From Candidatus Omnitrophota bacterium (GTDB lineage: Bacteria > Omnitrophota > Omnitrophia > Omnitrophales > Aquincolibacteriaceae), in contig JAKLFP010000002.1 of NCBI GenBank assembly GCA_022711115.1, forward strand, positions 79,674-143,673: a DNA stretch of 64,000 bases. Direction: 5' to 3'. Of this stretch, positions 38,601 through 47,600 are shown piece by piece. A program made the position numbers. Numbering within the stretch: the first letter of the stretch is position 1; each line of letters starts with the position of its first letter.

Positions 38601-41600
38601 AAAAGATCTTTGAGGCGTTGTTTCCATGAAGCTTTGGCAATGCCGTTGTATTTCAGCGATTTGATCACTTGAAATCCGGAACTTTCCAACATTTCTTTCC
38701 ATTCCCCGTAACTGGCAAAAAGCTCATGCGTTTGATTCCGGCTTTTTCGATTCGCTGTCAAAAGGACAGAAAGAATATCCTGATACCACATGATGTTCGG
38801 AACCATGGCGAGAAAAACACCTTGAGGCTTGAGGATACGACGGATTTCGCCGAGAGCTTGGCTGATATTCAAAAAATGCTCGAGACTTCCGAGACACGTC
38901 ACCACATCAAAAGAGCCATCCTTAAAGGACATTGCTTCAGCGGAAGAAAGCGTGTAGGCCCCAGCCGGGAATTCCTTGCGGGCAATCGAAAGAGCTTCCC
39001 CCGAAAGATCCACGCCATAAAAAGATGTTGCTCCAGGATAGAGCCGGTGCAGTTCACGTAAAAAATAGCCGCCACCGCAAGCCAGATCCAGAATCGCTCC
39101 TGCGTGAGGCATAAAGCGATAGACTTGTTTTGCGATCCAGGCATACGCCCGATCCTCATCCCGGATCGGCGCCTGCTTGTAAAGGGCATCATATTCGGCC
39201 TGCAACGCGGCAAGATCTTTATGTGAAGTTTCGACCACCATATTTCAAGAACTCCTTATAGACGCTGATGGTTTCCCGCGCGGTTTTTTGCCAGGAAAAT
39301 TTTTTAATCTGTTCAAAGCCCTTTTGTTTGAATTCCACCCGAAGGGCTTGATCGCCCGCAAGTTTTTCCATACCGTGCATAATGGCTTCCGTATTATAAG
39401 GATTGACCAGCATGCCGGCCTCTCCCGCGACTTCCGGCGTCGAGGTGATATTGGATGTTAACACAGGACAACCCGAAGCCATAGCTTCTAAAATGGGAAT
39501 GCCGAACCCCTCATAAAGCGACGGGAAAATTAAGGCCTCAGCACCCGCATAAAGGACATTTAAATCCTCGCGGCTGAGAAATCCCGGAGTGAGAATGGCT
39601 TCAGAATTGAAGGCATACTTTTTTTCCAGAAACTCGATATATTGACCGTGTCCGAATTGAGTGGATCCGGCAAGAACGAGCTGGAAATCGGGATGTGTTT
39701 TTGAAAAAATCCTAAAAGCCTCCAAAACGCGCCCAATGTTTTTTCGAGGCTCAAGTGTCCCGACAAATAAAAAATAACGGTCCTTGACCCGGAGATTTTT
39801 CTTCACGGCCTGGATTTTTCCAGCGGGGATATCCGAAGTAAATCCTTCATGGCCTGAAGGATAAACCACCCGGATTGTTTTCTCCGGAATTTTTAAATGC
39901 TGCATTAGATCTTTTTTCGTATGCTCCGAATCCGCAATAATCCGATCCGCTTGCCTGACAACAAACGGAAGCCATTTGCCCCAATAAAACTTGCTAGCCA
40001 GCCCCATCTGGTTTTTGAAGAGTTTGCCCGCAATATCATGCACGGTCACGATCAACGGACAAGGCTTTCGAAAAGGCGGCGCAAAAGCAGGCACATGCAG
40101 CAAATCAACAGAATCTTTTTTGACAAGTTGCGGGAGTGTTAAGTTTTCCCAGGCAAGACGTTCGAGGGTTGTGAAGTCCCGACCTTTGGGTAAAGGCCGA
40201 GAATAAAGTTTGAGTTCAAATTGAGAATGGCATTCGAGTTGCAGAGATTCCAGCAAATGCCGGGTAAAAACGCCGAGACCGCTATGTCCCTGGATGGCTT
40301 GCGCGTCAAATCCAATACGGCCCATGAACGGAATCACGCCGCCTGTTTTTGATGGCGCGCCAGATCGTGATCGACCATCCTATGGACCAATTCTTTAAAA
40401 CTGACCGTGGGTTTCCAATTTAAAACCCGGCGGGCCTTGGCAAAATCCCCTTTCAGTTCATAGATCTCTGCGGGGCGAAAAAATTGCTCGTCTTTTTTAA
40501 CGTACTTTTGCCAATCCAGATCCACATGCCCAAAGGATATCTCCAAAAACTCACGAACCGTGTGGGTTTCTCCAGTGGCAATGACAAAATCATCAGGAGT
40601 CTTTTGTTGGAGCATGAACCACATGGCAGTGACATAATCCCCGGCAAATCCCCAATCCCGTTTTGCCTCTAAATTTCCTAACCTCAATTCCGTTGCTTGC
40701 CCCATTTTGATCTTGGCAACCGTGTCCGTGATTTTACGAGTGACAAACTCAAAACCGCGACGAGGCGATTCGTGATTAAACAGAATACCATTGCAGGCAA
40801 ACATCTTGTACGCTTCGCGGTAATTGCGGGTCAGGTGAAAACCCGCGAGCTTGGAAATTCCGTACGACGAGCGCGGGAAAAGCGGTGTGGCTTCATTTTG
40901 CGGGCTCTGCGGCGCCACGCCGAACATTTCGCTTGACCCGGCAAAATAGAACCTGCATTTCGGAGCACGTTCTTTCAGCGCAGACAAAATGGAATGCGTG
41001 CCGTTGATGTTGGTGTTCATGGTAGAGAATTCATCTTCAAAGGAGTAACTGACAAAACTCTGGGCAGCCAAGTGGTAGCACTCGTCCGGCTGGATTTTTT
41101 CCACCACATTAAAAACACTGGAATAACTTTCTAACGACGCGGAGTGGAGCTTCAGTTTTTCCCGGATATGATTGATCCGCCAAGTTCGATGCGCCGGATC
41201 TTCCAAAGCCACCCGACGAACAATCCCATGCACCTCATAGCCCTTGTCGAGCAAAAATTCCGCTAAATAAGACCCGTCCTGCCCTGTAATCCCTGTAATC
41301 AATGCTTTTTTCGCCATCTTCAACTCCTTATGAATTCAAAAAATGTGCCGCTGCCGGAATGAATGGATGCATTCTATCATCCCCTCCCCCTCTCGACAAC
41401 TTAACACTCGGGAAAACTTAACCATCGCGTACGGCGGGTTGGAATTTTGAATTTATTTTTTGAGCGATAAGCTGCGCCGCCACTTCGATCCCTGCTTCGT
41501 TCCAGTGAGTATCATCCCAAGAATACAGTTGTTCTCCCGAAAGAACCCGGGAACGAAAGCTCGAAAAAACATCGATTGATTTGACTCCCAGCAAATCAAG

Positions 41601-44600: not shown

Positions 44601-47600
44601 CTTATCGCCTGTGCTGTAATAGCCATTGCGGAATTTTTGTTTATAGACAGTCTCGTTGTTAAGGTAGGTTCGAAACATCGAAGGCCATCCGGTTTTGAGG
44701 CAAAGCATTCCCATTTGATTATCGCCGAGCAAAATCCCATCATCCGCCACAATGGCCGTTTCAATGCCGCTGACAGGTTTTCCCATAGAACCGGGCTTGA
44801 TGGGAAGACCCGGCTGATTTGTCACCATGATCCCACCAGTCTCAGTTTGAAACCAGGTATCATAGATATCCTTTTTAAGAATTTTTCGCGCCCAAGCAAT
44901 CACTTCCGGATTCAGAGGCTCTCCAACACTAAAAATATGCTTTAAAGCATTCAGGTCGTATTTTTTAAATTGATCCGGATTTTCCCGCATTAACATCCGC
45001 AGCGCCGTCGGAGCGGAATACCAGCAAGTCACTTGTTCCCTTTCGAGAATATCAAACCAGGCATTTGAGTCATAATTGCCGCCATAGTGAATTTGAGTGA
45101 CGCCAAGGCTCCAGGGTCCCATGATCCCATACGATGTTCCGGTCACCCATCCTTGATCTGCCGTACACCAAAAAACATCGGAATCTTTCAGGTTCAACAC
45201 ATCCTGGGATGTCTGATGAAGATGCAGGATGCTTTCATGGACATGCAAAACACCCTTAGGTTTTCCTGTAGAACCAGAAGTGTAGTGTAAAACTGAGGGC
45301 ATGGAGGGTCCCGTGAGAGGGGCAACGAAGTCATCTGACATTGAGCGCATCAGCAGCGGATAGCTAAGAACATCCTCAGACAGATGCTCATCCATATCCA
45401 CCACCATAATCCACTTCAAACACGGTAATTGTCCTTTAACCCGCATGATTTTCTTGAGAAAACTCTTTTTAGTGACTAAGCCCTTGGCGCCTGCATCCCC
45501 GAGCCGGTCCACAATGGCCTCATCGCCAAAATTCGCAAAAAGCGTCCCGCAGATAAGCTGGAACTTGAGAGCGCCGAGAAAGCAGAAGAATTGCTCCGGC
45601 ATTTTAGGCAGAAAAGTAAACAGGATATCGCCGGCCGCAAAGCCCAAGGAACTCAAAACACCGGCAAATTTGCTGGATTCGCGATCAAGATCTCGGAAAG
45701 AATAATCCGTTCTTTCCTGGTGGGCGGAAATCCATCGAAACGCGGTTTTATCGCCAAGGCCTCGTTCACATTGCTGTCGGGTACATATGTGACCGATGTT
45801 GTATTGATTATTTTCGATCAGTTCCATAAGCAGGATGAAATTTTCGACTCACGGCAAAGAGAACATTTTTATTGTTTTCCAGCACAGGAAAAAGCATTTC
45901 ATCATAGACAAAATGCAAAGGCTGGTTCTTGGGCATCCAAACATAATCAACATGATAGCGCTTTAAAAAATTCACAGCCCAAGAGGCATCATCAGTCTGA
46001 TAAAAGCGATCGACTTCTTCCAGACGGCGAACAGCATCGGCATAAGTCAAATGCCCCATGAAATAGGTTGTGCTTGTGACTGCCCCTTCAAAAACCGTCT
46101 GGCGCTCTCCGAGCGCGGACATGAAAAAATAATGTCCCTGAAAAAGCATCGCTGGATTTTGCGGCGGTGTTCCGGCTTTGTAAATCGGATTATCATGAAA
46201 CGGATGCAGGATGACAGCATTCGGACTTGTCTTCGTTCTAATAAAATCAAAAACATTCATCGAATCACGATCTATATACGCATAAGAACCAGGCCTAAAG
46301 AAAAACGCATCAGCTCTGACGCATGGCAGGACAAGGTAAATTACTGCCATGGCTAACAGTAAAGGTTTGGGCCAAAACTTTTTGAGGTGCCAAAGCAAAT
46401 CGATGGCCTGAACCGTCAACGGCATCAAAAAAACTGAAAGAAAAAGAAAAGCCCGATCCAAAACAGAAACGGCCGGTCCTTGCGGCTTAAAGATTACAAA
46501 CGTGGATATAAAAAACGCAAACACAAACATCCAGGCAACAATCGTATGGATCTCTTTTTTGGGCTCCGGACGGCGTAGTGCGGCATAAAGTGCAGGGAAA
46601 GCCAGAAAATGATATTTTACCGGAGAATCCGCGAGGGGCAAAAAAAGCGTGACAATAAAAGCCCCGCACTGCGCTAGGAAGGACAGAAGCTGATGAATGC
46701 CTAAATGAAAAGGATTCCCCGGAGAAAGACCAAAATTCATTAAAAGCTCAAAAAAACGCAAGGGGTTGCGGAACCGGGTCCGGGCCGCTACTTGAAAGAC
46801 TCCTTCCCCGAGCCCGAAGGTCGGTGATGAACTGGCGGAGAATCCGAGCAAAGCAATCATGCAAATACCGCCGAGGATCGCTGCGAAAAAACAATAATTC
46901 ACAAGCGATGACCAGTGTTTTTTTTGCAGAGAATCCACGGCCGCATAAAGACCAATGGCCCCCAGCGTCACGGCGCCAATAATCGCGTCATAAAGCAACA
47001 AAAAACCTAATAGCGTGAAAGCCGCCCATGCATACGATTGTTTTCGGCTTTCAAAATATTGCGGGAGTAAATAAAAAACGATGGTAACGAAAAAAAGCAC
47101 CGTGAGGGTGTAGTGATGTTTATAAAAAAAGGAAATTTGAGGCGGGAGGAGAACCATGAGTAAAACCGCTAACCACATCAACGAAAAACGTTTGAAGTAC
47201 TGATAAAAAACCGGAATCAACGTTCCCAAGAGCCAAAAGATTGAGATCGGAGCAACGAATTTATAGTAAAATTCAAGCATTCTAAGGGACGTGCCGGACA
47301 TGCGATAAAGCAATTCTACAAAAAGATCCGCCAGATAATGATATTGAAGCTTGTAACCCGAAAAAATCGGAAGCATCGGAGGGACGCGATGATGCAATTC
47401 CGCGGTCACGCACGCTCCCCAGATATGGTCATCATAAGCATAATCGCCAATTACCAATCCCCCATCCGGTTCGCTGTAAATACGGTTGGCGAATGAGACA
47501 AAGATCATCATGGCTGCTGCGTAGAGAATGACGAAAACAATCCTCATTTTCTTTCGGTCAGCATCGTACGGCAAGGAAACAGCCTGAGCGTGTGATTTCC

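Follow-up and report, generated by a model that had tools for sequence, protein, structure and literature searches.

Four genes that run in the same direction on the minus strand occupy positions 41418-45827 of the window, the whole 64,000-nucleotide stretch of DNA analysed here (Candidatus Omnitrophota bacterium, assembly GCA_022711115.1, contig JAKLFP010000002.1, positions 79,674 to 143,673). In order, they encode an AMP-forming ligase derived from acetyl-CoA synthetase (Acs) (44205-45827, minus strand, 540 aa; Pfam AMP-binding, 1.1e-70, and AMP-binding_C, 1.3e-16), a 78-aa phosphopantetheine carrier of the WDSLxH type (43965-44201, minus strand; PP-binding, 1.4e-6), a 475-aa membrane-bound O-acyltransferase (MBOAT; 42524-43951, minus strand; Pfam MBOAT, 2.3e-26) and a membrane-anchored SGNH acyltransferase-like protein (41418-42524, minus strand, 368 aa from its ATG; ALGX, 5.3e-16). 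All four Pfam assignments exceed the curated cutoffs. An initial annotation made from the sequence alone had placed four genes at these positions and on this strand, and both the open reading frames and the profile search agree with it; the motifs that it quoted are also present, namely WDSLSH in the carrier, RRWHIS in the MBOAT, GDSYS in the SGNH protein and WCTADQGWVTGTSY in the ligase. The TAA of the ligase is separated by 3 nt from the ATG of the carrier, and the TGA of the carrier by 13 nt from the ATG of the MBOAT. The SGNH start shares a single base with the MBOAT stop (TGATG), and is not coupled to it by an ATGA, as had been described. A GTG further upstream, at 42659, is disfavoured as the SGNH start, homologue alignment supporting the ATG at 42524. 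Promoter and terminator hits did not exceed shuffled-sequence levels (13 versus 10.8 +/- 3.2 and 13 versus 10.2 +/- 3.2), so no operon boundaries are claimed.

By its profile and structure matches, the ligase is Acs-type and not DltA-type, as the initial annotation had held, and a close relative of the short AcsA-type acetyl-CoA synthetases. Its best NCBIfam model is the acetate--CoA ligase PRK04319 (NF003313), to which it aligns from model position 38 to the end with 685.4 bits, below the cutoff of 729; with TIGR02188 it scores 451.6 bits (cutoff 724.95). The best of its 25 top-scoring NCBIfam families are all acyl/acetate-CoA ligases, and no DltA model is found among these 25, the lowest of which scores 140 bits. 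The top PDB matches are Acs enzymes, and the closest solved relative is 9g79, a 572-aa AcsA-type Acs that is collinear over its full length (E 5e-147). The ATP motif TSGSTGKPKG is present, as are WCTADQGWVTGTSY and SGKIMRR. The last of these contains the A10 catalytic lysine, K517 (codon 44277-44279, minus strand), which is invariant in carrier-linked and stand-alone clades, so the adenylation chemistry is expected to be intact.

In alignment to 2p20, three of the four acetate-pocket residues of the Salmonella Acs are kept (V310, T311 and V386 as V228, T229 and V301), and the pocket Trp, W414, is replaced by F326 (codon 44850-44852, minus strand). Such a pocket is consistent with the short-chain carboxylate substrate that had been suggested earlier. 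Pocket residues have a role in the acyl range of these enzymes, with medium-chain enzymes having Gly in place of the Trp (PMC10455477). The same paper describes roles in CoA binding and the second half-reaction for R191, R526 and R584 of Acs, and a role of R584/R586 in binding the 3'-phosphate of CoA (PMC10455477). Aligned to the Salmonella enzyme, the window's ligase has S492 (codon 44352-44354, minus strand) at the R584 position and L434 at the R526 position.

To place these differences, 164 loci were surveyed, of which 80 came from species-representative genomes, 80 from metagenomes and 4 from exact protein look-ups. A first residue comparison set 129 ligases of the window's clade against 73 ordinary (stand-alone) AcsA-type enzymes, and a pooled context set contained 23 loci with a ligase at least 50% identical to that of the window and 141 ordinary AcsA-type loci. 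Identity separates the clades without overlap, as it is never below 59.3% among members of the window's clade and never above 53.7% across clades. Position 326 is Phe in 125/129 clade ligases, and Trp in all 73 stand-alone and in 140/141 pooled ordinary enzymes. Position 492 is occupied by Ser, Gly, Ala, Thr or Cys in the whole clade (129/129), and by Lys or Arg in 73/73 stand-alone and 140/141 pooled ordinary enzymes. Further fixed differences of the clade are Q225, S436, N513-K514 and Y527.

Gene linkage follows the same division. A carrier gene lies directly downstream of the clade ligase in all 18 loci with at least 300 nt of downstream sequence, and an MBOAT is present in 12 of the 15 for which 2 kb or more is available. 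Among ordinary Acs loci, a carrier or MBOAT neighbour is found in only 1/141 (L136), and in none of the 140 with both Trp and Lys/Arg. The L136 ligase (metagenome contig Ga0116174_10002349, 5001-8316; 44% identity) has V228, V229, T301, Y326 and F492, and the genes behind it encode a WDSITH carrier and an MBOAT that terminates in GIYGQF, which suggests a second, independent-looking lineage of carrier-linked ligases with a different pocket. Together, the residue changes of the clade and its linkage to a carrier are strong comparative evidence, drawn from sequence, that the ligase has come to use the carrier as acceptor in place of CoA, with a slight alteration of its acyl pocket.

If instead the ligase were a local acetyl-CoA synthetase, feeding an acyl-CoA-dependent MBOAT of the PatA/AlgI type beside a carrier that is unrelated or regulatory, this would account for a score of 685 bits just under the cutoff of an acetate--CoA ligase equivalog, for the retention of three of four pocket residues and the A10 lysine, and for an MBOAT with the fused shuttle motif (see below) that is typical of acyl-CoA-using MBOATs. 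It would not account for the loss of the basic CoA 3'-phosphate residue in 129/129 clade members, when this residue is kept in 73/73 and 140/141 ordinary enzymes, or for the replacement of the pocket Trp in 125/129. Nor would a housekeeping-type enzyme need a carrier directly downstream in 18/18 loci, at a distance of 3 nt in the window. A local acetyl-CoA supply thus appears improbable.

The carrier has a predicted phosphopantetheine attachment site at Ser36 (codon 44094-44096, minus strand), as PP-binding and acyl carrier protein (ACP) alignments indicate, in agreement with the DSLSH site of the initial annotation. This serine lies in GWDSLSH (residues 33-39), with WDSLSH at residues 34-39, and WDSLSH was found in every ligase-linked carrier examined among the first related loci. 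The sole strong match to a solved structure is 2LML, a "putative acyl carrier protein" with 53% identity and an identical WDSLSH (E 7e-21), as compared with about 1e-4 for ordinary ACP structures. Both DltC equivalog models score below their cutoffs (26.1 bits against 68, and 18.2 bits against 52.35). In a HMMER scan of 1.84 billion representatives, the carrier family had 4,420 members at E<=1e-3 and 513 at E<=1e-10, and a W-D-S-[LFMI]-x-[HNQ] motif dominates the best 150 of the 4,420. Thus, the carrier family already has a solved nuclear magnetic resonance structure (2LML) and many members, and the parts of the cassette are not new in themselves but uncharacterised as a system. Housekeeping fatty acid genes are found at the other end of the window (47-2120, minus strand: acpP, 47-286, with the motif GADSLD; fabG, 333-1094; fabD, 1095-2120), and the presence of this AcpP indicates that the carrier of the cassette is an additional, specialised one. 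In P0185, a protein of 268 aa, a WDSLKH carrier domain is fused to an acetyltransferase-like hexapeptide-repeat (LbH) domain, which indicates that soluble sugar acyltransferases make use of this carrier family too.

The 2LML sequence, possibly that of GmACP3, is Geobacter-like and 72% identical to the carrier that adjoins a clade ligase in a Desulfuromonadales genome. A WDSLxH/N-type motif was reportedly described by Ramelot et al. in 2011 for GmACP3 of Geobacter metallireducens, along with a suggested role in lipopolysaccharide (LPS) or lipid A, and acylation of lipid A is said to have been their proposal. This background, the 53% identity of the window's carrier to the structurally characterised 2LML and the LPS-type genes of the locus (GT9, gmhB-like HAD) all count toward a ligase-carrier pair whose product is a long-chain or hydroxy-fatty acyl-ACP destined for lipid A or some other lipid. 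The partners of the pair are against it, as an MBOAT with a shuttle tyrosine and an SGNH transferase are polymer-esterification machinery and not of the LpxL/LpxM type. The pocket (V228, T229, V301, F326) is also Acs-sized, with an aromatic residue where medium-chain enzymes use Gly, so that long-chain fatty acids are ruled out as cargo (PMC10455477) and the lipid route is very improbable.

The MBOAT aligns with DltB (6bug) over residues 26-388 (E 4.6e-27), and DltB is the nearest MBOAT core among solved structures and NCBIfam models (TIGR04091, 170 bits, cutoff 375). The initial annotation had taken the His of RRWHIS (residues 281-286) as catalytic. This residue, H284 (codon 43100-43102, minus strand), aligns with DltB H289, and H326 (codon 42974-42976, minus strand), the His of a WHG motif, aligns with DltB H336, the catalytic His of DltB; both are conserved. 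Past residue 388, the protein carries an 87-residue C-terminal extension with hydrophobic segments, one of which (420-438) passes the hydropathy threshold and a second of which (about 449-466) was read by eye. The extension ends in an FxYxxF acyl-shuttle motif, F470-I-Y472-F-Q-F475 (42527-42544, minus strand), in which Y472 is the predicted acyl-tyrosine. Besides that of the window, the first eleven related loci contain 9 complete ligase-linked MBOATs, of which 8 terminate in F[IL]YxxF and one (L006), at a contig end, does not; MBOATs of loci added later end in the same way, L136 having GIYGQF. The gaps of 3 and 13 nt and the 1-nt overlap leave no room in the cassette for the gene of a DltX-like microprotein.

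In Dlt, the FxYxxF motif is carried by the separate DltX, while in PatA, AlgI and WssH it is fused on extra C-terminal helices, and Tyr455 within the motif of PatA is acetylated (PMC12148441). In sequence terms, therefore, the MBOAT is a Dlt/Pat hybrid with a DltB-like core and a fused shuttle motif. The Dlt architecture that the initial annotation had assigned to the four genes holds for the gene order, which is real and recurrent, but not for the system as a whole, since its MBOAT has a fused shuttle that the initial annotation had missed.

The product of the fourth gene has an N-terminal transmembrane (TM) helix (residues 4-22) and the residues expected of an SGNH enzyme. The block I nucleophile is S105 (codon 42210-42212, minus strand) in GDSYS (103-107); V102-G103-D104-S105 does not vary in an alignment to which highly divergent products of the fourth gene at other loci also belong. 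The block V Asp and His of the triad, D338-T-H340 (codons 41505-41513, minus strand; DDTHW), are invariant in two alignments, and align with the DTHW of AlgJ. The catalytic order is canonical, with Ser105 ahead of D338/H340, and the ALGX profile covers the C-terminal third only. An AlphaFold2 model has an SGNH fold with moderate confidence (a predicted local distance difference test score, pLDDT, of 77, from 14 sequences). The protein had initially been called DltD-like; it is not so specifically, and is better described as an AlgX/GDSL-like SGNH protein.

Relatives of this protein are few. A k-mer-indexed protein search found 7 from the single sequence and 14 with a profile; tblastn with the window's protein found no partner in the other loci, and a hidden Markov model built from six homologues found one only, in L005. 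The partners are too divergent for sequence search, and were therefore identified by the Pfam labels of neighbouring genes and by motif inspection. They are ALGX-like in L001, L005 and L084, GDSL_2 in L082 and DUF1574-like in L083, and the Bacteroidales loci L007 and L008 have two GDSL proteins each, one of them with two LysM domains, which hints at peptidoglycan as the acceptor in Bacteroidales. The best non-identical relative of the window's SGNH protein is 49% identical, as compared with more than 120 database clusters at 72-79% for the ligase. The SGNH protein evolves fast and is swapped between loci, with a marked contrast in rate to the ligase within one operon.

The window's ligase clade was found in Omnitrophota, Geobacter/Desulfuromonadales, another deltaproteobacterial metagenome-assembled genome and Bacteroidales, and the four-gene order ligase-carrier-MBOAT-SGNH recurs in other genomes. 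In the Bacteroidales metagenome-assembled genomes, L007 (2140-8872) and L008 (2116-8869), the order is inverted, with two GDSL proteins, MBOAT, ligase and carrier. L007 also has a second carrier-like open reading frame, with the motif WDSLAQ, at 1892-2119. Two or three MBOAT(-SGNH) units accompany a single ligase-carrier pair in L082 (7874-13623), L091 (2463-9544) and L100 (2-5414); one pool of acyl-carrier might thus serve several acceptor-specific exit routes. The cassette type is thus widespread, and its annotation in databases has so far been generic ("acetyl-CoA synthetase" or "AMP-binding protein").

In the window, the cassette is embedded in a surface-glycan locus of more than 45 kb. 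The neighbours named in the initial annotation were all located: a HAD/gmhB-like gene (19525-20178), GT9 (25611-26876), a Wzx-type flippase (56751-58232) and nonulosonate (NulO) genes, namely NeuB (58255-59295) and a CMP-sugar cytidylyltransferase (63221-63952). Also present are a DegT aminotransferase, an initiating sugar transferase, a carbamoyltransferase, a Wzy_C protein, many GT2/GT4 genes, GT-C (PMT_2) and DUF2079 membrane proteins, several methyltransferases and a GDP-mannose 4,6-dehydratase. Decorating enzymes include an O-carbamoyltransferase (27429-29309), a WbqC-like/GNAT fusion that adjoins NeuB (59285-61525) and at least five SAM methyltransferases, among them those in the 38528-39241, 48741-51211 and 61546-62145 regions. 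The glycan of this locus is probably heavily substituted. Immediately upstream of the cassette, a 715-aa polytopic membrane protein (45808-47955, minus strand) has no Pfam match, and its stop overlaps the ligase start by 20 nt. This gene is not kept beside the cassette elsewhere, where GT4 or other genes are found instead, and it may encode a GT-C or polymerase-like enzyme of this glycan locus.

From its sequence and by analogy with known systems, the cassette is probably a self-contained, carrier-dependent MBOAT-SGNH pathway in which a small acyl group is attached, as an ester, to an envelope polymer outside the cytoplasm. What the sequences themselves show is the gene set with its domains and catalytic motifs, the ligase residues peculiar to the clade and the strict linkage of ligase and carrier, often with an MBOAT. 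The Acs-derived ligase would adenylate a short carboxylate of about C2-C4; this could be acetate, with a slightly larger or substituted acid (propionate, glycolate or lactate) favoured by the Trp-to-Phe change in the pocket. It would then thioesterify the acid onto the phosphopantetheine arm of the WDSLxH carrier, and not onto CoA. The MBOAT would then receive the acyl-carrier on its cytoplasmic side, and its conserved His residues would catalyse transfer to Tyr472 (FIYFQF) on the outward side of the membrane. From there, the membrane-anchored SGNH protein would accept the acyl group on Ser105 (triad D338/H340) and pass it to a hydroxyl of the glycan made by the surrounding Wzx/Wzy-type locus. 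The acyl group and the acceptor are inferred, and every chemical step is modelled on Dlt, PatAB (PMC12148441) and the precedent of a ligase-carrier pair, for which SMb20650/SMb20651 is an example, the ligase loading a co-transcribed carrier protein (PMC7232532). Cells already have acetyl-CoA, and MBOATs that use acetyl-CoA need no ligase, which argues for a cargo other than acetate.

Several observations weigh against this pathway, or against parts of it. On the side of the ligase, the pocket departs from that of Acs at one of four positions only, which is little for a non-acetate substrate, and a dedicated route from acetate to a carrier is not obviously needed, given the cellular acetyl-CoA. 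The Trp is kept in 4/129 clade members and in L090. Short AcsA-type enzymes lack the R191 loop regardless of clade, and the R526 position, which is Leu in 129/129 of the clade, is Leu in 22 and Arg in 50 of the 73 stand-alone enzymes, so that this change is not diagnostic. On the side of the exit route, the modest confidence of the SGNH model counts here, and three loci with a ligase and a WDSLSH carrier have no MBOAT within the available sequence: L003 (7001-9607), L093 (5001-7711) and L126 (3-2367). The fourth gene is so variable that the acceptor cannot be read from it, and in the Omnitrophota locus L083 (JGI contig Ga0485829_0000030, 1-13677) the cassette lies between integrase-like genes and parA/parB, outside a glycan locus. 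The setting of L083 suggests that the cassette is a mobile, self-sufficient module.

The three ligase-carrier pairs without an MBOAT indicate that the pair may feed other acyltransferases; their MBOAT may also be located elsewhere. The neighbours in L003 are a TMEM260-like GT-C, a polysaccharide deacetylase and a VIT-family protein. Pairs of this kind could be taken to mean that the acyl-carrier is consumed in the cytoplasm, for example in N-acylation of an amino sugar or nonulosonate precursor, and that MBOAT and SGNH protein work independently with acyl-CoA. The size of the carrier family (4,420 at E<=1e-3), with its LbH acyltransferase fusion P0185, and the aminotransferase and NulO genes of the locus would suit such a role. 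We give it little credence, as the adjacency of carrier and MBOAT is kept across phyla and with two loader types (the second is described below), at a gap of 13 nt in the window, and as the cassette has no cytoplasmic acyl-ACP-dependent acyltransferase.

It is also conceivable, if unlikely, that the chemistry is as proposed and the acceptor is something other than the glycan of the locus, such as peptidoglycan, a lipid-linked intermediate or a protein. The LysM domains on SGNH partners in Bacteroidales (L007) point in this direction, as do the L083 cassette beside integrase and ParAB genes and the fast evolution of the fourth gene, which has 7 k-mer-detectable homologues when the ligase has thousands. 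Against this, the cassettes of the window, L001, L082 and L084 sit among glycosyltransferase, methyltransferase and flippase genes, and Pfam finds no LysM or other peptidoglycan-binding domain in the SGNH protein of the window. Esterification of the locus glycan through a dedicated carrier is thus preferred for the window.

A related arrangement with another loader was found on plasmids. A plasmid tblastn search with the carrier gave 50 records, mostly of Sinorhizobium meliloti pSymB, plus one Rhodobacteraceae plasmid. On the latter (Rhodobacteraceae bacterium SC52 plasmid pSC52_6, L086, 6977-12764), a WDSLSH carrier comes first, and behind it lie genes for an FkbH-like HAD-IIIC (FkbH_N) protein, an MBOAT with FIYFNF at its C-terminus, an SGNH-like protein that is TM-anchored and has GSS and DAAH motifs, a VOC protein and an LbH acyltransferase. 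On pSymB (L085, 4114-8676), the gene of an MBOAT that terminates in FLYQGF precedes that of a WDSLSN carrier, and next comes a HAD-family protein without a Pfam match. The loader of this sister cassette is thus FkbH-like HAD-IIIC, unlike the ANL ligase of the window, and by analogy with FkbH it would form a glyceryl-carrier. This suggests that carrier-dependent MBOAT acylation with a glyceryl-type cargo is present in cultivable alphaproteobacteria. The pairing of one carrier-MBOAT core with two or more unrelated loader types speaks for a modular, carrier-dependent branch of MBOAT-SGNH systems.

More broadly, and tentatively, as our confidence here stops a little short of calling it probable, carrier-dependent MBOAT-SGNH acylation may be a widespread modular branch of envelope chemistry beyond the Gram-positive Dlt system, found in Gram-negative and uncultivated bacteria. 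Its constant part would be the WDSLxH carrier and the shuttle-fused MBOAT, with exchangeable loaders (Acs-derived in the window, FkbH-like on rhizobial and roseobacter plasmids) setting the acyl group and exchangeable SGNH partners (AlgX-like, GDSL or GDSL with LysM) setting the acceptor. A short-chain carboxylate--[carrier protein] ligase of this Acs-derived kind would represent a new enzyme activity, one that no longer uses CoA and through which a surface glycan would acquire a non-acetyl ester such as propionyl, glycolyl or lactyl.

In chemical terms the cassette is a variation on a known theme and offers no new principle. Its interest lies in joining two halves of the accepted MBOAT-SGNH picture, the use of a carrier in Dlt and the fused shuttle elsewhere (PMC12148441), and in the re-tooling of an acetyl-CoA synthetase lineage for a carrier, a switch that sequence signatures predict almost perfectly across the 164 loci. 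If the proposed pathway is true, it would include a new enzyme activity, that of a short-chain acyl-carrier ligase, and would explain how surface glycans could be decorated with acyl groups that are not abundant as CoA thioesters. It would also supply a genomic marker (Phe or Tyr at the pocket Trp, a non-basic residue at the R584 position and a WDSLxH carrier) with which, in Omnitrophota, Bacteroidales and Geobacter relatives, thousands of genes that at present carry the wrong label of "acetyl-CoA synthetase" or "AMP-binding protein" could be re-annotated. Surface acylation affects phage and immune recognition, and the swapping of loaders and acceptors is therefore of ecological interest.

Full-text literature searches found no paper describing a cassette of Acs-type ligase, carrier and MBOAT, and none of the NCBIfam models is specific to the carrier, MBOAT or SGNH protein of the cassette. 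A 2025 JBC paper states that MBOAT/SGNH pathways besides Dlt lack a carrier protein, Dlt having a carrier and the separate DltX shuttle and the others using acyl-CoA with the shuttle fused to the MBOAT (PMC12148441). The initial annotation had likewise regarded the combination of an Acs-type ligase, a carrier and an MBOAT as unlike known systems, and agrees with this paper. For the carriers of the 2LML type, a structure and, reportedly, a speculative role in LPS or lipid A are on record, and the literature searched contained no description that connects them with a loader of the Acs type and an exit through MBOAT and SGNH proteins.

With Dlt, the cassette shares the predicted succession of components from ANL ligase to small carrier, MBOAT, FxYxxF acyl-tyrosine, SGNH serine and envelope polymer (PMC12148441). 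It differs in that its ligase comes from Acs and not DltA, its carrier is of the WDSLxH type and below the DltC cutoffs, its MBOAT itself carries the shuttle motif and additional hydrophobic segments in place of a DltX microprotein, and its SGNH protein is AlgX/GDSL-like and not DltD. The host also differs, being a candidate-phylum organism with LPS-type genes, and the cargo would be a small carboxylate and not an amino acid. With the Pat/Alg/Wss systems (PatA/PatB, AlgI/AlgJ/AlgF/AlgX, WssH/WssI, PatA1/PatB1), it shares the C-terminal FxYxxF fused on extra hydrophobic segments, a separate membrane-anchored SGNH/AlgX-like transferase with Ser-His-Asp and the setting in a polysaccharide locus. 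Those systems use acyl-CoA without a carrier (PMC12148441), whereas the cassette has a strictly linked ligase and carrier; the residues of its SGNH protein are moreover in canonical order, with the ALGX profile fitting the C-terminal third. The ligase resembles the short AcsA-type Acs (PRK04319; 9g79) in its ATP motifs, A10 lysine and three of four pocket residues, but forms a separate clade with W414 changed to Phe, R584 to a small residue, a score below the cutoff and a constant link to a carrier. Judged by its sequences, then, the cassette fits neither Dlt, Pat/Alg/Wss nor Acs, and combines a Dlt-like cytoplasmic side with an outer side like that of Pat/Alg/Wss.

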